Source: Candidatus Saccharimonadota bacterium (GTDB taxonomy: Bacteria > Patescibacteriota > Saccharimonadia > Saccharimonadales > SLHW01). From it: 64,000 nucleotides of DNA. The notes under the pieces are model-generated. The model was not told the origin of the DNA, searched no databases, and worked only from the letters and a program-made list of their open reading frames with translations. Numbering within the stretch: position 1 is the first letter of the stretch; each line of letters begins with the position of its first letter. Positions 7,111 through 28,239 of the stretch are shown here, piece after piece. The translations under genes were made by a program, and so were the position numbers. The DNA is taken from contig JAGXIU010000002.1 in assembly GCA_024635455.1 (NCBI GenBank), forward strand, positions 300,309 to 364,308, written 5' to 3'.

Positions 7111-7185
7111 GGCCTCATCGTCTAACGGTTAGGACGCCAGGTTTTCATCCTGGTAATCGGGGTTCGATTCCCCGTGAGGTCACCA
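7111..7185 (+). tRNA. tRNA-Glu (anticodon UUC), CCA encoded
   Basis: Acceptor ggcctca/tgaggtc, anticodon arm ccagg-ttTTCat-cctgg, T-arm cgggg-ttcgatt-ccccg, discriminator A followed by CCA. Confidence 0.93.
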
Positions 7186-19035: not shown

Positions 19036-19431
19036 GGGGCTGAATTTTAAGCTCGACGTTGGACGTTAACGATTAGATCAGCAGGCCGCTTGTCAGCGTC
19101 ATAGGCACCTATATTTTAGATGCAAACGCATTTACTCGCGCAAAGAACGCAGTTGCTAGTGCTTTCGCACTACCTCAGTTTTCTTTCGCAACAGTTCGAG
19201 TCTAAGTACTCGTTCCGTCGCCTTATTGACGCCAGATAGATTCGCGTGACGCCATATTATCTGGATGCCCGCATGTAACTGATCCGTAGCATACGGAAAG
19301 ATTTTCGGATCACCTCTACAACGTTTTTGTTTGTTTTTATCGTAGTAGAGTATATACAAACAAACTAAGCCTGTAGGACAGACTAGTCGAACAACCATCG
19401 GACGCGGGGGCGGTACCCGCCAGCTCCACCA
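19036..19431 (+). ncRNA. ssrA: tmRNA (transfer-messenger RNA)
   Basis: The 5' GGGGCTGAATTTTAAGCTCGACG pairs with the 3' CAGCTCC-A-CCA, giving a G3:U70 acceptor stem. Resume-codon context TTTTAGAT|GCAAAC opens an ORF at 19122-19205, with the TAA stop at 19203. Confidence 0.9.
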
Positions 19432-20532: not shown

Positions 20533-22593
20533 TTATGGACTCATTATACCTGACTGTGCGTTGGCCGCTTCACGAGCTTTGTATGCATGATGATGCAGCC
20601 GGTGGTGTCGCATCAGCTTAATAGACAGCGCTAACATGCCAGCACCGATAAGAATACCGGCAAAAAACATGATAGGTGATTCGCTTTTATCAAGTCCTTG
20701 GGCGATGTTTTGTTCACTAGCATTGATGTAGCTTTGAGCTAAGCGATGCGCAGGGTACAGCTCAACAACGGTCTCGAACTCAGGTAGTGCATCACGAAAA
20801 CGACTCTGTGAATAATGCTCAAGCCCGTTATTCCACGCTTGCTGCACCGGACTGTTGACGTTCAGTGTGATTGATTGATCGCTCAGAAGGTCTCGTACGT
20901 CGGCAATGTCTCGCACGTAGCTCTTGGCAGCATTTTGGGTCGTGTCATCCTTGAAACGATAGGTGAGCAGCCCAAGTGCTTTTCCCTCTGCGTTTACCGC
21001 TGGGCCGCCGCTATTGCCTTGCGAGGCGTCAGTGTCTGTCTGTAGGAGTTGTCCTTCGCCTCCAGCAGCAGTCCGTACTGAGCTGATAGTGCCGTTCGTA
21101 ATACTGACGGCCATTTCGCTGGTGTCTACTAACTGGTTTTCAGCGTCATTTGGAAAGCCAAGCAGGGAAATTTGTTGCCCTGGTGCAATATCAGCTGGTG
21201 CACCGAGTTGTATAAATGGCGCGTTATCTAAGGACACCTTCAGCAGGGCAACGTCGCTGCTCGTGAAACCCTCTTCGCTACCACTAGCAAGGTTTAGCTG
21301 ATCTTTGCCTGAATAGCTATAGTCAATGAGCTCGGCTTTTTTGATATCACGAGTGTTACGGAATGAGAATAAATCTAGTATGTCTGCCTCGTTCTCTGGC
21401 TGGAGTGGTTGGTCACCGAGCGCTACTAGTATTACTTCTTGCTTGTTGCGGAAGGTTACTGCGTCATCTGGTAGTTCATATATTTTGGCGACGATTGCAG
21501 CTAGTTCTTCTGGCTGTGAACGCAAGCGACTAATCTGAGTTGAATCTAACCCAACCACGCTCGTGAGAAACGAAGACAGTTCGAGTGGATTAGCCAGGAG
21601 CGTATTTACTAATACGTCAGCTGGTTCATAGACAACTACGTGTCCGTTGGTGGCGATATAGCCATCATTAGATATCAAGAAGCCAGACCCAGTTACCGCC
21701 CGACACTGCTGCTCGCTAGCTGATTCGAATTCAAAGGATATACTGGCGCAAACAATGTGATAAATCTTTGTTACAGCAGGTGATACAAGGTCAGACAGGT
21801 ACTGGTTGTTTGACTCGCTTCGCGATACCCAATTGCCAGATAGTTGACGTACAAATTGTAAGCCAAGCGTCTCGCCAAAGCTAAATTCATTGAGCACTTG
21901 TGCATATATAGCAGGAATAGCTGGGTCGCCAATCAGGCCTTGCAGCGATATCGTGTAGGTAAGATTGTTAATGTTCGCTACCCATATGACTCGATACACC
22001 TCAGCGGAAGACGTAATTTCACTTTGGTAGCGGTAGCTAAATTTACGGAACTCATTACCAGCTAGTGTCTCTGTCGTCTCTGCAACCAGTTTGTACGAGC
22101 CAGATTCTGTGGTGTCTAAAATGTTTTGTGCGATTAGCTCAGGGTTTGATTGGTCTGTCTCGGTATAACGTATCTCGAGGCTACTAGCGCGTACGTCAGG
22201 TTCGCTGTTGCCCGGTTTAGGTTCAATGTTGATAAACTGTAACGCGGTTTGTTCGTTCGCATCTTGTTGGTTGGAGATTTCGCGAGGCTCTACATCATCG
22301 AGGCTATCGCGTACTGTTACTGCGAATGTAGCTAAGTCTACTGGCAAAGTGTGGCCAGCATTTGAGCGAAGCTTAACCTGTGAGCCCACTTGTCGCTGTT
22401 CTTGTCTGGTTGTATCTTCTCGCTGTGTTGGTGGTGCTGTTTGTCTCGTAAGGTAGAAAACAGCCAAAAATACCAAGGAAGTAAGGATCAGTAGTATTGC
22501 GAGGCCGGCAAGCGTAACATGATGTGCGCGGTAAGGCTTTTTGTGATGTGAGCGCAAGTGCGCGTGTGGTATTGGTTTGTGTATTTTGGTCAT
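20533..22593 (-). CDS. Membrane-anchored trypsin-like (S1/HtrA-type) serine protease
   Basis: Catalytic-triad contexts TNGHVV, DVALLKV and GNSGGPAV. One N-terminal and one C-terminal TM helix. Confidence 0.82.
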   Translation of the reverse strand: MTKIHKPIPHAHLRSHHKKPYRAHHVTLAGLAILLILTSLVFLAVFYLTRQTAPPTQREDTTRQEQRQVGSQVKLRSNAGHTLPVDLATFAVTVRDSLDDVEPREISNQQDANEQTALQFINIEPKPGNSEPDVRASSLEIRYTETDQSNPELIAQNILDTTESGSYKLVAETTETLAGNEFRKFSYRYQSEITSSAEVYRVIWVANINNLTYTISLQGLIGDPAIPAIYAQVLNEFSFGETLGLQFVRQLSGNWVSRSESNNQYLSDLVSPAVTKIYHIVCASISFEFESASEQQCRAVTGSGFLISNDGYIATNGHVVVYEPADVLVNTLLANPLELSSFLTSVVGLDSTQISRLRSQPEELAAIVAKIYELPDDAVTFRNKQEVILVALGDQPLQPENEADILDLFSFRNTRDIKKAELIDYSYSGKDQLNLASGSEEGFTSSDVALLKVSLDNAPFIQLGAPADIAPGQQISLLGFPNDAENQLVDTSEMAVSITNGTISSVRTAAGGEGQLLQTDTDASQGNSGGPAVNAEGKALGLLTYRFKDDTTQNAAKSYVRDIADVRDLLSDQSITLNVNSPVQQAWNNGLEHYSQSRFRDALPEFETVVELYPAHRLAQSYINASEQNIAQGLDKSESPIMFFAGILIGAGMLALSIKLMRHHRLHHHAYKAREAANAQSGIMSP

Positions 22594-22680
22594 ATCGCTT
22601 AACGAACTTATGATTCATGATATGCTACAAATAGCCATATACGCAAACCCAAGCAGGTTTGTATACCTAATATAAACACG

Positions 22681-22686
22681 TATAGT
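22681..22686 (+). promoter_or_regulatory. -10 box TATAGT 5 nt upstream of trehalase ATG (leaderless-type)
   Basis: TATAGT at 22681-22686 with the ATG at 22692 and no Shine-Dalgarno sequence. Confidence 0.35.
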
Positions 22687-22691
22687 GCACT

Positions 22692-23951
22692 ATGATTGAC
22701 AAAACAAAACACTTATTTACCAGCATCAGAAAGCCGAGCATTATGCTCACCGCTAAGGATGTCTCAGAGGCTCGTATATTTATCGCAAACCGTTGGCAGA
22801 AGTTTGAGCGACATAATACAAAAGACGTCGATGCGCTTATTGGGCTGCCAAACCCCTATATCGTGCCTGCGTACACTGAGGGGAATGAGTTTGACTTTAA
22901 CGAGTTGTATTACTGGGATAGCTACTTTATGGTTCAGGCGCTCCTCGACGAGGAACACAAAGATCTGGTTTGTGGTATTTTAGAAAACCTGGTTTATCTA
23001 TTTGATACATATGGAGTGATACCTAACGCCTCGCGCACCTATCTAATGGGACGCAGTCAGCCGCCGTTACTGACTTCATTTATATGGGATGTATATGACA
23101 CCTATAGGTTGGACGAATCCTGGTTAAAGCGGATGATGAAGGCCGCCGAGGCAGAATACAAAACCGTCTGGATGGGCACCGCGAAGCCTCACTTTCGTCA
23201 GGTACACCAGGGGTTGTCACGCTACTATGATATAAATATGCTGAACGACTTAGCTGAGGCCGAAAGTGGCTGGGACATGACGCCGCGCTTTAAGCGCCGA
23301 GCGCTGGATTATCTACCGGTAGATCTCAATAGCTTGCTATATAAGTACGAGACAGATCTCGCTCGTTTTTACCGAACTATTGGCGATAAGCGCACCGCTG
23401 GTACTTGGGACACCGCTGCACGACACCGCGCTGAGGTTATGAACGACCTAATGTGGAATAACTCCAAGAACTTGTACTACGACTATGACTATAAGAAGGG
23501 CAAGCAAAGCACCGTGTCTTCGTTAGCAGGCTTTTTCCCACTCTGGGCTGGCATGGTTGATGATGATCGAGCAAAAAAACTGGAGAAATCACTACGTAAA
23601 TTTACGCAAAAGGGCGGTTTATCGGCTACCGATACTTACACACTGAACCAGCGAGTTGGTAATGGTGATGTGCCTTTGCAGTGGGCATATCCCAACGGCT
23701 GGGCGCCACTACACTTTATTGTGCTAAAAGGTCTCCGTCGCTACGGATATGAGAAAGAAGCCAAGCGTATTGCGCAGAAGTGGCTCAAAACGAATCTTGA
23801 CTGGTATAACCAAAACGGTGTGTTCTTAGAGAAATACAATGTCGTACAGCCGACACAACCTCCGGTACGAGGCTTGTATCCGACGCAGGTGGGGTTTGGT
23901 TGGACGAACTCAATCTTTGAATGGGTATGCCAAGAATTCATCGATAGCTGA
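22692..23951 (+). CDS. Trehalase (glycoside hydrolase family 37), no signal peptide
   Basis: GH37 signatures ELYYWDSYFM, RSQPPLL, ESGWDMTPRF and LQWAYPNGWAPLH. Confidence 0.88.
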   Translation: MIDKTKHLFTSIRKPSIMLTAKDVSEARIFIANRWQKFERHNTKDVDALIGLPNPYIVPAYTEGNEFDFNELYYWDSYFMVQALLDEEHKDLVCGILENLVYLFDTYGVIPNASRTYLMGRSQPPLLTSFIWDVYDTYRLDESWLKRMMKAAEAEYKTVWMGTAKPHFRQVHQGLSRYYDINMLNDLAEAESGWDMTPRFKRRALDYLPVDLNSLLYKYETDLARFYRTIGDKRTAGTWDTAARHRAEVMNDLMWNNSKNLYYDYDYKKGKQSTVSSLAGFFPLWAGMVDDDRAKKLEKSLRKFTQKGGLSATDTYTLNQRVGNGDVPLQWAYPNGWAPLHFIVLKGLRRYGYEKEAKRIAQKWLKTNLDWYNQNGVFLEKYNVVQPTQPPVRGLYPTQVGFGWTNSIFEWVCQEFIDS

Positions 23952-24282
23952 TCTGACGTTTTGGTCTGTCAGCCGGCAGAGCCGACTGCACTACCAAAAC
24001 TCTCTGCACTATGCTTCGTTGCTGTCTCCGTCACTCCTTCAGCGTATTGCTTATACGCCTCAGTGCGTTACTCGACAGAGCCTCGCCTAGTACTAGAGCA
24101 GACAGCTATCGCACGCAGTCGATTTATATCTTATACGCCCCCTCTACACACTTAAGAAGAAATCCCAGAGTTGTAGTGTGGAGCAACCAGCTAGCGATTA
24201 TTTAGCCTCTAGAGTACACAAATTAATTCCCCATAAGGATGTTTCAATTACTTTTGTTCATTTATATGCCATCTTGAAAAGA

Positions 24283-25278
24283 TTAAGCATTGGTAAGCTC
24301 TAATGGCTCGAGAATCTTATTTGATTTTGCTCTGTTGCATTTCCAGCATAACGCTTGCAGGTTACTCTCTATCGTTATTCCCCCCTTTGAGATGGGCATC
24401 ATATGATCAACTTCGAGTAAAAGGTGACTTTGACTTTCTTTGGATACTCCGCATGCTTTGCAAGTGTATTCGTCTCTATTTAAGATGAATTCTCTCAGGC
24501 TCGATGTCATAAGTTGACGTTGATATTTCGCCGATTTTCTATATTTAATTAAAGAACTTAAATACTCTGCAAAGTCTTGTAGTCTATTATCATCCAGGAC
24601 AATCTTGTTACTGTAGTGTTTTCTATTTGTTGGCGAGTTATATTCGAACGAATACCACAAGTAGTAGTCCCTCACGAATTTCGGTGGCTTTCGTGAGCCT
24701 AATTTTTTCATAGTCAAGCTCTTGAAAACATATGCTCCGCTATACATAGTCTCACGTATGTCTTGCATCAGCTCTTTGTACTCATCTATTAGGATTTTGT
24801 ACGTTTTCTCAAGAGTATCGTATTTTTGTAATATCCCTTCAATCGTTTGCACGGACTCTTCACCTATCTTTGTGTCTTTAAAAAAATATTTAACTATGTA
24901 TTTATATATATCTAGTCTTGAATTCTTATACACAGTAAGTGTACTATGCCTCACATTTCCCTGGGTCAGAAATGACTGTTGTTCACTAATGTAAACTTTT
25001 GTCTCCGCCATAAATTCATCAAACTCATTGTATTCATAAACCTTATCTGACAACTGCTTTTTCAATAACAAAAACTCTTCAGTTTTGTAGTACTTTAGAG
25101 TCTTAATTAGATAGTCAAGGTAGTATATTCCTACAAAAGGCGCCGCAGCCAATGCTATAAGGGTAATTATAACGATAAAAAACCCACCCGTTAAAACAGT
25201 TAGAACAACTAATGAAATTATTGTTATTGTTTTATTTTTTTCTAACTGATCTATCGTATTGGTTAAAAAATCATGCAT
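24283..25278 (-). CDS. Membrane-tethered HNH endonuclease
   Basis: About 40 aa of N-terminal hydrophobic hairpin (ITIISLVVLTVLTGGFFIVIITLIALAAAPFVGIYYL). C-terminal HNH motif CKACG...EVDHMMPISKGGITIESNLQALCWKCNRAKSNK. The gene is visibly AT-rich relative to its neighbours. Confidence 0.85.
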   Translation of the reverse strand: MHDFLTNTIDQLEKNKTITIISLVVLTVLTGGFFIVIITLIALAAAPFVGIYYLDYLIKTLKYYKTEEFLLLKKQLSDKVYEYNEFDEFMAETKVYISEQQSFLTQGNVRHSTLTVYKNSRLDIYKYIVKYFFKDTKIGEESVQTIEGILQKYDTLEKTYKILIDEYKELMQDIRETMYSGAYVFKSLTMKKLGSRKPPKFVRDYYLWYSFEYNSPTNRKHYSNKIVLDDNRLQDFAEYLSSLIKYRKSAKYQRQLMTSSLREFILNRDEYTCKACGVSKESQSHLLLEVDHMMPISKGGITIESNLQALCWKCNRAKSNKILEPLELTNA

Positions 25279-25515
25279 ATCAAAGAGTTCGTTATTTTAC
25301 ATTGTACACCACAGAGGTAGCAGTTGCATTAATACCTTCCCGTATACTTCATTCAATAATCTGTCTTCTGATTTTTTGATTTTCTGCTCTGGGCGACTGC
25401 TTGGTTCACGGATTACCCATCGCGTTACCCACTTGCATACAAGGTTACGGAAAGTCAGCTTTTACGCAATGACAGATTAATCAATGACGTTACGCGTGAA
25501 GCACAACTGGAGTCC

Positions 25516-25728
25516 ATGACTAGGTATCTACAAGAATTCTTGATGCTCAAGTCCGCGTGGGGTTGCCATAGTTTTAAGCCGATTAATGATGATCTTCAGG
25601 ATGATAAAATCGCTTTTGCACACTTTCGGGTAAACGTCCTTGATTATTGTATAAATCAATATTTACATGATGAAACAATTGATTATCGAATGATGGCGTC
25701 AATCCCCGGCGGTGAAATAGATACTTGA
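25516..25728 (+). CDS. Hypothetical 70-aa ORF (weak)
   Basis: ORF only, with no motif or clear ribosome-binding site. It lies in the AT-rich islet, divergent from the HNH gene. Confidence 0.3.
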   Translation: MTRYLQEFLMLKSAWGCHSFKPINDDLQDDKIAFAHFRVNVLDYCINQYLHDETIDYRMMASIPGGEIDT

Positions 25729-25740
25729 CGTGTTAAGTAT
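25721..25740. promoter_or_regulatory. Second copy of ATACTTGACGTGTTAAGTAT site
   Basis: 20 of 20 nt identical to 18443-18462. The flanks also agree, giving 25 of 27 identical over the extended alignment. It sits just upstream of the small ORF 25743/25779-25961. Confidence 0.45.
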
Positions 25741-25778
25741 TTTTGGGTCGTGAGGGCTGGTGGTCGTTTGGTGGTAAG

Positions 25779-25961
25779 ATGATACGCATGAGCGAAAATG
25801 CTGACATATTGCCATGTGCCGATAAGCTCGCTTTTGATACGCGAGACCAAGCGAGCGCTAGTGCGTTAACTGTAGATTGGCAGCATGGCGCAAAGGTGGT
25901 TCCGTATAATTGCACACATTGTGGGCTGTGGCACTTATCTTCGAGGATTGCGTCTGACTAG
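25779..25961 (+). CDS. Small Cys-rich (putative zinc-ribbon) protein
   Basis: ORF track 25743-25961 (TTG), with in-frame ATGs at 25779 and 25788. Contains PC...NCTHCGLWH (C, CxxC, H). TGG-TAAGAT (25773-25780) could serve as an extended -10 box just before ATG 25788. Confidence 0.5.
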   Translation: MIRMSENADILPCADKLAFDTRDQASASALTVDWQHGAKVVPYNCTHCGLWHLSSRIASD

Positions 25962-26004
25962 CGCTGCTATACCTGTTATAATTATCATCTGAAGGAACAT
26001 CATA

Positions 26005-27459
26005 ATGCCGAAGACATATTACGTTACTACATCAATTCCATATGCTAATGCGAATCCGCACATTGGCTTTGCTATGGAGCTGATTCAGGCAGATGTATTG
26101 GCGCGCTATGCCCGTCAGCAAGGGCATGAGGTTATTTTCTCCACTGGTACAGATGAACATGGGTCAAAGATATATGAAAAAGCTCAGGAGAATGGCGTTG
26201 ATCCAAGAGACTTAACGAACGAAATGAGCCAGACTTTTCGTTCTCTGAGTGACATGATTGACATCAGTAACAACCGTTTTATCCGTACTACTGATGAAAA
26301 GCACGAGACTGGCGCACAGAAAATCTGGGAAAAACTCAAAAAAGACATTTACAAGTCTACTTATGAGGGCTTGTATTGTGTCGGTTGTGAAGAGTTTGTA
26401 ACCGCTACTACCGCAAAAGAAAACAATAATATTTGCCCACACCACCAAAAGCCATACCAGTCCCTCAAGGAAGAGAACTATTTCTTCAAGCTCAGTGCAT
26501 ACGCTGAAAAGATTCAAAAAGCGATCGAGGATAATAGCTTCGAGCTGTTACCAGCCTCTCGGCGCAATGAAATATTGCGCATGATAGAGGGCGGACTTGA
26601 GGATATTAGCGTGTCACGACCGAGCAATAAGCTGCCTTGGGGCGTACCAGTGCCGGGTGACGAATCACAGGTCATGTATGTTTGGTTTGAGGCGTTGATG
26701 AATTATATTACTGTGCTTGACTTCCCTGATGGTGCCGATTTTTCTAATTATTGGCCAGCAGACGTGCAGGTAATTGGGAAGGACATTATTCGCTTTCACA
26801 CCACTATATGGCCAGCTATGTTGTTGGCGATTGGCGCAGATTTACCAAAGAAGCTCTACATACACGGTTTTATCAGTATAAAAAACCAAAAGATAAGTAA
26901 GAGTATCGGTAACGTGGTACACCCACAAGAAGTTATCGACATTTTTGGTGTTGATCCGTTGCGCTATTATTTACTGCGCCACATACCATCAAGTAGTGAT
27001 GGTGATTTTACTTGGCAAGCACTCCACAACGCATACACGAACGAGCTAGCGAATGACCTTGGAAATGCTGTCCAGCGTACTGCCGTCATGGTTAATAAAT
27101 ATTTGGACGGTTCAGCCGATAACGATTCACCAACTACGCACGATACAAGCGCCTATCACGAAGCGTTAGAGAGATGTCAGTTTGACAGAGCACTCGAAGA
27201 AGTTTGGAAGCAGGCTCGTGGCCTAAACCAGTACATAGATGAGCAGCAGCCTTGGCAGGTTGCTAAGCAAGATGATCGAGAACATCTCGAGCAAATTCTG
27301 CAGCACCAAGTTGCGAGCATGTTACAAATTGCAGAATTACTAGAACCGCTCTTACCGCACACCGCAAAGCGTATACAGGAAATCTTTACCGCAGATGTTA
27401 TTCGGCCACCAGAGACGACATTATTCCCTCGTGTAGAGACAGATATTTTACCGAGTTAG
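26005..27459 (+). CDS. metG: Methionyl-tRNA synthetase
   Basis: HIGH-type PYANANPHIGF, KMSKS-type KISKSIGN and the zinc knuckle CVGCEEF...CPHH. Confidence 0.95.
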   Translation: MPKTYYVTTSIPYANANPHIGFAMELIQADVLARYARQQGHEVIFSTGTDEHGSKIYEKAQENGVDPRDLTNEMSQTFRSLSDMIDISNNRFIRTTDEKHETGAQKIWEKLKKDIYKSTYEGLYCVGCEEFVTATTAKENNNICPHHQKPYQSLKEENYFFKLSAYAEKIQKAIEDNSFELLPASRRNEILRMIEGGLEDISVSRPSNKLPWGVPVPGDESQVMYVWFEALMNYITVLDFPDGADFSNYWPADVQVIGKDIIRFHTTIWPAMLLAIGADLPKKLYIHGFISIKNQKISKSIGNVVHPQEVIDIFGVDPLRYYLLRHIPSSSDGDFTWQALHNAYTNELANDLGNAVQRTAVMVNKYLDGSADNDSPTTHDTSAYHEALERCQFDRALEEVWKQARGLNQYIDEQQPWQVAKQDDREHLEQILQHQVASMLQIAELLEPLLPHTAKRIQEIFTADVIRPPETTLFPRVETDILPS

Positions 27460-27468
27460 GTTTGCTTC

Positions 27469-28239
27469 ATGGAATTTGTTGATACGCACTGCCATATCCA
27501 GTTTGATGATTATGCTCTCAACGCTGAGCAAGTTTTGCGCGATGGTGTTGCGGCCGGCGTTACACGAGCAATAGCAGTAGGCTGCACACCGAAGGATAGT
27601 CAGCAAGGAGTTACTTTTGCTGAGGCACACGATGGCGTGTTTGCTGCCGTTGGCATTCATCCGCATGAGGCGCATCACTATCAAGACGATACTGTGGCTC
27701 TAAAGAAGCTCAGCGAACTTGCAGGGCAAAAGCCAACGGTTGCCATCGGTGAATGTGGACTTGATTATTACTATAACCACTCGCCCAAGGAAGCTCAGCG
27801 GGTGCTGTTAGAGCGCCAATTGCAGCTCGCAACTGATCATAATTTACCTGTATTGTTCCATGTGCGTGATGCATTTGATGATTTTTTCCCGATATTTGAT
27901 GCCTTTCCAGGAATAACTGGTGTTGTGCATAGCTTTACGGCTGGCAGTAAAGTTTTAGAAAAAGTATTGAAACGTGGATTATATGTCGGGCTTAATGGTA
28001 TAATCACGTTCAGCAAAGACGAAGCACAGCTACGCATGGCCCAGCAAGTCCCGTTAAATCGGATTGTACTGGAAACAGATGCCCCCTTCTTGACACCGAA
28101 GCCTTTCCGTGGTAAGGTATGCGAGTTAAAGCATGTAGTGGAGACTGCGCGGTTTTTGAGTGATTTACGTGGAGAGCCGCTTGATGGATTTGCAAAAGCA
28201 ACTACGGATAATGCACAAGCAGTATTAAAAATTGCATAA
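27469..28239 (+). CDS. TatD-family metal-dependent hydrolase/DNase
   Basis: FVDTHCHI, IGECGLDYYY, LPVLFHVRDA, VVHSF and LETDAPFL. Confidence 0.9.
   Translation: MEFVDTHCHIQFDDYALNAEQVLRDGVAAGVTRAIAVGCTPKDSQQGVTFAEAHDGVFAAVGIHPHEAHHYQDDTVALKKLSELAGQKPTVAIGECGLDYYYNHSPKEAQRVLLERQLQLATDHNLPVLFHVRDAFDDFFPIFDAFPGITGVVHSFTAGSKVLEKVLKRGLYVGLNGIITFSKDEAQLRMAQQVPLNRIVLETDAPFLTPKPFRGKVCELKHVVETARFLSDLRGEPLDGFAKATTDNAQAVLKIA

Follow-up and report, generated by a model that had tools for sequence, protein, structure and literature searches.

This study analyzed a 64,000-nucleotide stretch of a Candidatus Saccharimonadota genome (contig JAGXIU010000002.1, positions 300,309 to 364,308; hereafter, the window) and focused on a minus-strand gene at 24283-25278 that encodes a membrane-anchored HNH nuclease, as predicted, of 331 amino acids. 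We conclude with high confidence that the protein belongs to an undescribed compact family, in which an N-terminal membrane anchor is followed by a conserved helical middle module that includes a beta-hairpin and, at the C-terminus, by a zinc-bound HNH nuclease domain that faces the cytoplasm. We are likewise highly confident that the Saccharibacteria copy was inserted as a single gene and has since been kept under strong purifying selection. With moderate confidence, the protein would protect the cell, or the host of a prophage, against incoming foreign DNA, chiefly superinfecting phages. The reading that we prefer, to which we assign a probability of roughly 45%, is that of a single-gene defence nuclease of prophage origin, which stays fixed to the membrane and cuts DNA as it enters.

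The 331-codon open reading frame (ORF) was intact. It starts with the most upstream in-frame ATG according to the ORF list and ends with a stop codon at 24283-24285, and an identical protein with the same neighbours is present on public contigs. A Kyte-Doolittle scan identified one hydrophobic segment in the entire protein, an anchor of 40 amino acids (residues 15-54; 25117-25236, minus strand) that is preceded by a 14-residue N-terminal stub (25237-25278). The anchor is followed on the same strand by a family-specific middle region (residues 55-205; 24664-25116), comprising a long antiparallel helical hairpin and a small helical subdomain, and by a pre-HNH module (residues 206-268; 24475-24663), in which a conserved beta-hairpin is joined to basic helices and the isoelectric point is 9.7. 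The HNH (His-Me finger) nuclease domain occupies the remainder (residues 269-331; 24286-24474, minus strand).

The nuclease domain agreed with the original prediction, which had described a complete HNH motif with an additional CxxC upstream. Residues 273-321 matched the Pfam family HNH (PF01844) with an E-value of 2.2e-11 (44.2 bits against a cut-off of 21.4), and HNH_5 (PF14279) was matched at 2.3e-8 (34.3 bits against 27.5), the two matches together spanning residues 273-326. All 83 homologues that we aligned matched the HNH profile. The alignment revealed that eight residues of the domain were invariant, namely the predicted catalytic residues D291, H292, N306, and N315 and the predicted zinc ligands C273, C276, C311, and C314, and that the catalytic residues align with the catalytic positions of McrA. 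Nuclease activity is predicted from this complete catalytic and zinc site. Upstream of the domain, the alignment invariants were Y63, F69, Y127, and F132 in the middle region, F211, Y213, and S215 in the beta-hairpin, and Q253, R254, M257, T258, and R262 in the rest of the pre-HNH module. Conservation decreased from the HNH domain (0.73) through the pre-HNH module (0.60) and the middle region (0.48) to the anchor (0.35), the least conserved part.

The whole protein was modelled confidently by AlphaFold2 (predicted local distance difference test score, pLDDT, 91.2). In the model, two antiparallel helices of approximately 38 residues each (67-104 and 140-177) enclose a small helical insert and are followed by the beta-hairpin (207-228), the basic helices (230-268), and an HNH core with the beta-beta-alpha-metal fold (strands 288-292 and 307-311; helix 312-318). 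Foldseek searches against PDB and BFVD matched the HNH core alone, with Gme-HNH, EcoKMcrA, TagI, ScoMcrA, Cap5, and the HNH domain of Cas9 among the matches; their probabilities were 0.84-1.00 but their E-values were weak (0.04-0.6). The best PDB sequence match was EcoKMcrA, and sequence similarity to PDB entries was restricted to residues 261-317. The middle of the protein, for which the original prediction had recognised no motif, matched no library and no solved fold. A separate model of residues 55-250 (pLDDT 92.1) yielded no PDB fold match at E ≤ 0.001, the best candidates being generic coiled coils with a TM-score of at most 0.33, and a profile of the same residues had no match among PDB sequences. 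Beyond HNH, searches of Pfam, PHROGs, NCBIfam, and PADLOC returned nothing for the query or for its 83 relatives.

We analyzed the membrane topology of the family from the distribution of hydrophobic and charged residues. An N-terminal hydrophobic anchor was found in 82 of the 83 homologues. It has the length of a single transmembrane segment in 26 of them, spans 27-50 residues in 53, and is longer in 3; in the single-segment members, it begins at residue 1. The 15 residues that follow the anchor contained an average of 3.55 lysines and arginines, compared with 1.01 before the anchor; by the positive-inside rule, this pattern, which holds across the 82 anchored homologues, places most of the protein in the cytoplasm. 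A cytoplasmic nuclease is also consistent with the four-cysteine zinc site and with the cytoplasmic DNA-handling domains (RNase_T, BRCT, Lsr2, and FtsK-gamma) to which some relatives are fused. The protein is therefore predicted to be tethered to the membrane with its nuclease facing the cytoplasm, as had been proposed originally. The two-helix N-terminal hairpin that had been proposed with it fared less clearly: the single 40-residue stretch, with a central T-G-G, is long enough for a hairpin with both ends inside, which makes such an anchor plausible, but AlphaFold2 drew the anchor as one long helix.

The position of the gene was compared with that of its relatives, using methionyl-tRNA synthetase as a probe, which yielded 80 loci from different species of Saccharimonadales. 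The window gene lies between a trehalase gene (GH37 family; 22692-23951, plus strand; Pfam Trehalase, E = 7e-93) and the methionyl-tRNA synthetase gene metG (26005-27459, plus strand; Pfam tRNA-synt_1g on the identical gene), the neighbours named in the original prediction. Synteny of the trehalase gene extended to most of the 80 related genomes, and the order trehalase, an optional small ORF, metG, tatD, an ORF of 125 amino acids, and nifS was broadly kept. None of the 80 fetched trehalase-metG loci contained a homologue of the HNH gene (tblastn, E < 1e-5). The gap between trehalase and metG varied from 35 bp to 6.4 kb in the other species (L016-L095), and the long gaps held as many as nine ORFs, the majority on the same strand with native G+C content (GC). 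We considered whether the gap is a hotspot for mobile elements or a defence island and rejected this, because its genes look like ordinary gene-content variation.

Only one sister metagenomic contig, L096, carried the gene at this place, as an 88%-identical copy (L096:2517-3539) at exactly the same site. Nucleotide alignment with L096 yielded one block over the gene and the 54 nucleotides upstream of it (24303-25332; 85% identity) and two blocks over the flanking genes (22397-24073 and 25808-28227; 81% identity). The ratio of nonsynonymous to synonymous divergence (dN/dS) between the two copies was 0.089, which indicates strong purifying selection on the HNH gene. The synonymous divergence (dS) of the gene, 0.74, was less than half the saturated value of 1.76 for trehalase and metG; the two lineages may have exchanged the islet later, or compositional constraint may have kept this value low.

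Relatives with 60-65% identity occupied unrelated chromosomal sites: beside a group of SocA/Panacea, Bro-N, Schlafen-AlbA_2, and M78-peptidase genes, beside a glycoside hydrolase gene, between Band_7 and hypothetical genes, and between genes for SAM synthetase and CorA. The copies at these differing sites shared no flanking non-coding sequence, and each was more AT-rich than its own locus. Around the window gene, no convincing direct or att-like repeats were found, and no tRNA or Rfam element lay within 4.8 kb of it. These findings indicate that the mobile unit is essentially the gene itself. The inserted islet comprises approximately 24111-25332, that is, the gene, a non-alignable 3' tail, and the 54-nucleotide 5' leader, with a GC of 0.31-0.37 compared with about 0.46 in the flanks. 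The HNH gene is thus a single-gene insertion between trehalase and metG, as revealed by synteny and not by composition.

The original prediction had argued for horizontal acquisition from the AT-richness of the gene, its opposite strand, and its non-coding flanks of about 330 and 240 nucleotides. The observations themselves proved accurate. The GC of the gene was 0.346, compared with a mean of 0.461 (standard deviation 0.023) for the 51 long ORFs of the window; this value was the lowest by far (z = -5.05). The strand bias was strong, with 46 of the 51 ORFs on the plus strand and the HNH gene among the five exceptions. The trehalase and HNH genes are convergent, with a non-coding spacer of 331 nucleotides from stop to stop (23952-24282), and 237 nucleotides separate the 5' side of the gene from a doubtful ORF of 70 codons. 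The conclusion stood as well, through synteny, but the argument from composition was weak. The GC deficit was confined to the first (0.381) and second (0.287) codon positions, whereas the GC of third positions was 0.375 and not deviant (z = -0.97). The AT-richness therefore reflects a protein rich in lysine, tyrosine, isoleucine, asparagine, glutamate, and phenylalanine, and not foreign synonymous codons; by itself, it is poor evidence for foreign origin or recent transfer. The gene was not universally syntenic in relatives, and its middle domain did not map to a housekeeping function.

We further analyzed the extent of the family. Full-length homologues with approximately 35% identity occurred in Firmicutes (Streptococcus suis, Enterococcus, Companilactobacillus, and Paraclostridium), and further members were found in Actinobacteria, Psychrobacter, and other Saccharibacteria. 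Among 1.84 billion representatives, a profile restricted to the non-HNH residues 55-250 retrieved only 407 clusters (50% identity), of which 115 had E ≤ 1e-30, indicating that the module is specific and the family compact. Clustering placed a Saccharibacteria-type group (mean identity to the query, 60%) apart from two Firmicute-type groups (36%). Members labelled in public records carry the names "HNH endonuclease" or, in the case of fusions to Ltp repeats, "Ltp family lipoprotein." Some members bear additional parts, including TM2 domains, SHOCT domains or zinc ribbons, an FtsK-gamma DNA-binding domain, and a C-terminal block of several transmembrane segments. One protein of 896 amino acids (P0172), probably actinobacterial judging from its Lsr2 DNA-binding domain, adds an RNase_T exonuclease, TerB, and BRCT to the core in a larger multi-nuclease architecture. 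Two relatives of a 409-amino-acid Saccharibacteria-type variant (P0055 and P0056) are truncated or frameshifted, with the anchor and middle region kept and the HNH domain lost, which suggests gene decay in some lineages.

The family was found repeatedly in prophages. In S. suis, Companilactobacillus, and Enterococcus, a cI-like helix-turn-helix repressor gene, an ImmA/M78 peptidase gene, the HNH gene, and an integrase gene follow one another on one strand at the edge of a prophage; the S. suis copies belong to at least three different prophages and integration sites. Among viral contigs in IMG/VR, 65 carried the family, and at least 45 of these had a flanking repressor gene, integrase gene, or both; this count is a minimum, given that detection relied on BLAST probes alone and that many of the contigs are similar to each other. 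In all but one of those contigs, the flanking genes lay on the same strand as the HNH gene. The Paraclostridium copy follows a prophage lysin gene and directly precedes a gene for an Ltp-family lipoprotein, and at another phage locus, the HNH gene lies between an HSDR_N-like gene and a zinc-ribbon/TM2 gene, with antirepressors nearby. The sole full-length copy among 50,697 cultured phage records was gene 29 of the Mycobacterium abscessus prophage prophiGD13-2 (L015), which is on the strand opposite to its neighbours. This copy was 47% identical to an S. suis protein despite the difference in phylum, which points to a wide horizontal spread among phages. We conclude with high confidence that temperate phages of Firmicutes are the principal home of the family, which is placed there in the lysogeny module and is expressed while the prophage is dormant. 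A small zinc-ribbon gene directly downstream of the HNH gene was also observed at several loci (L011-L014 and L001-L003:9255-9587), with a TM2 domain as well in the phage loci; its product may be a facultative partner, and the gene is absent from the window.

This position in the lysogeny module coincides with that of a known exclusion gene. The Streptococcus thermophilus phage TP-J34 carries int, ltp, a gene with a metalloprotease motif, and cI in that order, and the product of ltp is the prototype surface lipoprotein of superinfection exclusion, by which a prophage keeps other phages from injecting their DNA (PMC3952083). The tape-measure protein is named as the target of Ltp in a passage of that paper that cites Bebeacua et al. 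(2013). Comparison of the two gene orders places the HNH family in the Ltp slot, between the integrase gene and the ImmA-like and cI genes, although the window copy itself is not in such a slot. The proteins differ: Ltp is a small, surface-exposed lipoprotein that blocks injection without an enzymatic domain, whereas the bulk of the window protein is predicted to be cytoplasmic, and it has neither an Ltp repeat (no PF07553 match in Pfam) nor a lipobox. A direct connection is nevertheless present in relatives. At least 32 clusters at 90% identity fuse the complete anchor-middle-HNH architecture to three to six C-terminal Ltp repeats; among them are P0124, P0127, and proteins of Psychrobacter strains in culture, with divergence down to 45% identity. 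Only a linker rich in proline, serine, and lysine connects the HNH domain with the Ltp repeats.

On the basis of these findings, we propose a mechanism, with lower confidence than the family assignment, that follows the logic of SNIPE (PD-lambda-1), a system characterised in 2026. [quoted passage not shown] In the mechanism that we envisage, the anchor would confine the nuclease to the membrane's inner face, at a distance from the chromosome, and the middle module may recognise either the incoming DNA or the injection apparatus, with the tape-measure protein as one candidate. Fused Ltp, TM2, or zinc-ribbon modules could assist this recognition in some relatives. The HNH domain would then cut the DNA during entry, and the cell would survive. 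The HNH family may thus realise SNIPE logic with unrelated parts. A bolder version, possible though rather doubtful in our estimation, is that the family constitutes a second, evolutionarily independent class of "injection-site" nucleases, composed of an anchor, a novel helical sensor, and an HNH domain, which temperate phages of several phyla use for superinfection exclusion and which the ultra-small, epibiotic Saccharibacteria captured as a stand-alone chromosomal immune gene; the Ltp fusions would then mark the tape-measure protein as the signal.

Several results weigh against a defence nuclease that cuts entering DNA. The window gene is solitary among housekeeping genes, with no defence or phage genes nearby, and some Saccharibacteria-type copies end before the HNH domain, which indicates that the gene is dispensable. 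The placement in lysogeny modules also fits roles other than defence against phages. The Ltp fusions have no second transmembrane segment, so their Ltp repeats should be cytoplasmic, unlike the surface-exposed Ltp, which weakens a simple transfer of Ltp function to the family. Moreover, the middle module had no detectable similarity to DUF4041 or to any domain that binds DNA or the tape-measure protein, and literature searches returned no description of the family and no experiment on any member.

These results were also considered under other explanations. The protein may be a McrA-like restriction nuclease, modification-dependent or non-specific, that is parked at the membrane and attacks any incoming DNA, whether phage, plasmid, or transforming, with the anchor only limiting self-damage. 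This explanation is unlikely, although it is the most probable of the rivals: the nuclease domain is closest, by PDB sequence and by fold, to the type IV enzymes EcoKMcrA, TagI, and ScoMcrA, the REase_II and mREase_IV models were the top PADLOC matches, and McrA is itself prophage-borne, on e14. The matches span only the HNH core of approximately 65 residues, however, a modified-DNA reader was not detectable, and both the Ltp fusions and the adjacency to an Ltp gene indicate an injection apparatus rather than DNA chemistry. Somewhat less probable is an abortive-infection effector, that is, a nuclease held inactive at the membrane, freed or activated by membrane perturbation during infection, that degrades host and phage DNA alike and kills the cell. 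A single gene for a potentially toxic, non-specific nuclease would suit this role, in which HNH effectors such as Cap5, one of the fold matches, are known to act, and AbiP provides a precedent for a membrane-anchored single-protein system (PMC13064643). The loci nevertheless share no conserved sensor or partner gene, the closest architectural analogue, SNIPE, defends directly, and prophage genes in the Ltp slot classically have exclusion functions. The original prediction had proposed a defence or abortive-infection module; its candidacy for defence has been strengthened by the lysogeny-module habitat and the links to Ltp, but nothing favours abortive infection over direct defence. The individual elements of the original interpretation withstood independent tests, and this support is comparative, not experimental.

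The phage habitat and the genomic distribution bear on three further explanations. Prophages of streptococci conflict with natural transformation, and their lysogeny modules carry membrane proteins such as ThaL, a transmembrane HIRAN-domain protein (PMC12637031); an anti-transformation nuclease that cuts DNA imported by competence would prevent deletion of the prophage by recombination ("chromosomal curing") and would limit uptake in naturally competent Saccharibacteria. Prophages of streptococci and enterococci commonly carry the family, but transforming DNA enters in single-stranded form, members also occur where there is no link to competence (Paraclostridium, Psychrobacter, and M. abscessus), the association with Ltp is phage-specific, and the window contains no prophage to protect; we regard this explanation as improbable. 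Less credible still is a selfish, free-standing HNH gene of the homing type that spreads by cutting empty sites without benefit to the host. HNH is a classic homing-endonuclease fold, the gene is a lone insert at differing sites, and many of the PHROG matches were phage HNH endonucleases, but a conserved membrane anchor is ill-suited to a search for chromosomal targets, Pfam searches of the query and the 83 members found no sequence-specific DNA-binding modules, and the gene is in neither an intron nor an intein. The dN/dS of 0.09 over a divergence at which synonymous sites of the flanks are saturated, together with the stereotyped position in lysogeny modules, is also unlike the homing pattern, and a homing HNH endonuclease was rejected on the basis of the conserved anchor and the undetected DNA-binding modules. 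A housekeeping nuclease of Saccharibacteria, for example one serving the uptake of DNA or the scavenging of nucleotides at the membrane, comparable with EndA or NucA of competent Gram-positive bacteria, is equally hard to credit. Saccharibacteria do rely on scavenged nucleotides, membrane-bound uptake nucleases exist, and the gene is under purifying selection; nevertheless, the conserved locus lacks it in all 80 related species, and the gene occupies variable sites where present, has truncated copies, encodes a nuclease predicted to face the cytoplasm, and belongs to a family centred on prophages of Firmicutes. We rejected this reading.

The sequence around the gene was also analyzed. On the 3' side, an inverted repeat at 23958-24000 within the spacer is probably the trehalase terminator. 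On the 5' side, the 54-nucleotide leader (25279-25332, minus strand) is kept in the sister copy, as revealed by the blastn block that reaches 25332. Judging from its sequence, we presume that it contains the promoter and leader, including a TACAAT approximately 23 nucleotides before the ATG; a consensus promoter scan did not flag it, and the consensus scan for promoters and terminators detected no more sites than in shuffled sequence. Beyond the leader lies a window-specific segment (25333-25807), of which approximately 83 nucleotides remain in L096 as judged from the gap in the alignment, and which is probably outside the islet. The doubtful 70-codon ORF (25516-25728) within this segment had no Pfam match and is uncalled in the public record. 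The 16-nucleotide repeat at 25603-25618 resembles 25821-25836, which lies within the conserved small ORF, and the segment may be a decayed partial duplication.

The conserved small ORF (25743-25961, plus strand) starts 464 nucleotides from the HNH gene, just upstream of metG, which lies 726 nucleotides from the HNH gene. It is listed with 72 codons and has 61 amino acids in the public record, ends in a C-x2-C motif, and had no Pfam match. It was kept in approximately half of the 80 Saccharimonadales loci, mostly between trehalase and metG. At 20533-22593 (minus strand), the window encodes a trypsin-like serine protease of 686 amino acids with N- and C-terminal hydrophobic segments and a histidine-rich tail; a homologue adjoins trehalase in 1 of the 80 related loci (L017), a count often limited by the length of the available flank. 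The RNA genes detected in the window, tmRNA at 19036-19431 (plus strand; Rfam, 74.8 bits) and tRNA-Glu(TTC) at 7111-7185 (plus strand), are both far from the islet.

The discrimination of self from non-self by location, in which DNA is cut as it crosses the membrane, has been shown for a single system, SNIPE, in 2026. If our reading is correct, a second family assembled from unrelated parts, with HNH in place of GIY-YIG and a new middle domain, would suggest a convergent principle rather than a one-off solution, and the Ltp fusions supply a concrete hypothesis on the target that is recognised. That prophages of streptococci, enterococci, and lactobacilli carry the family in their lysogeny modules is relevant to phage therapy and dairy fermentation. 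Genomes of Saccharibacteria are smaller than 1 Mb and few defence systems are known from them; a single-gene nuclease that is retained under strong selection is therefore a rare handle on the phage resistance of these epibionts. Should the injection-site mechanism hold, the gene would be a tractable immune gene for Saccharibacteria.

Comparison with characterised nucleases placed the family close to several systems in single parts. The closest solved HNH domains are those of EcoKMcrA and other type IV enzymes (PDB 6GHC, 6GHS, and 5ZMM), which share the catalytic and CxxC zinc architecture of the window protein. Enzymes of the McrA type are soluble and carry an N-terminal reader of modified DNA, whereas the N-terminal 250 residues here form an anchor and an unrelated helical module, in which Pfam and fold searches detected no such reader. 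The best PADLOC matches were the REase_II and mREase_IV models; as had been noted originally, no methylase or other restriction component adjoins the gene among its window neighbours. PADLOC also indicated similarity to PtuB of Septu and ZorE of Zorya II (E-values of 4e-6 to 2e-4) within the HNH core only. In Zorya, the action of the nuclease is coupled to a membrane-embedded sensor. Both systems are multi-gene and require PtuA or ZorABC, whereas the HNH gene is single; a role as a Septu or Zorya component was rejected because neither a PtuA ATPase nor a MotAB-like ZorA/ZorB partner lies near the gene in the window or at homologous loci. A terminase-associated phage HNH protein was likewise rejected: such proteins have approximately 100-130 amino acids and are encoded beside the terminase, whereas this one has 331 and is encoded in phages in the lysogeny module or after the lysin gene. 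In prophiGD13-2, a separate small HNH protein (gp33) is encoded near the terminase.

Other systems share the plan of an N-terminal transmembrane segment joined to a nucleic-acid-directed domain in one protein. ShdA of the Pseudomonas system Shield combines a transmembrane segment with an RmuC nuclease of the PD-(D/E)xK type; it resembles the window protein in joining a membrane segment to a nuclease, but its domains are different, and no sequence similarity to the family was detected. AbiP of Lactococcus, a membrane-anchored single-protein abortive-infection system, has an N-terminal transmembrane segment and binds nucleic acid (PMC13064643); it shares this layout but has other domains and no detected sequence similarity, and it is not a known nuclease. 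The closest counterpart was SNIPE. DUF4041 was detected neither in the query at E ≤ 1 nor, among the Pfam families listed, in any of the 83 members, and the PADLOC model PD-lambda-1 was absent from the 13 query hits at E ≤ 1 and from the 25 listed of 33 families matched by members at E ≤ 0.01. The two also differ in nuclease, HNH here and GIY-YIG in SNIPE, and in setting, given that the HNH family is typically prophage-encoded in Gram-positive bacteria and SNIPE is a chromosomal system of Escherichia coli. They are alike in being encoded by a single gene, in combining an N-terminal transmembrane anchor, an elongated helical region, a middle domain, and a C-terminal nuclease, with the bulk of the protein predicted to be cytoplasmic here, and in having one or two transmembrane segments among homologues. 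The gradient of conservation from nuclease through middle domain to anchor is also shared with SNIPE, among whose homologues conservation peaks in the nuclease and is weakest in the N-terminal region (PMC13190303). The HNH family is thus not SNIPE by domain content, but by this analogy it plausibly works like SNIPE.

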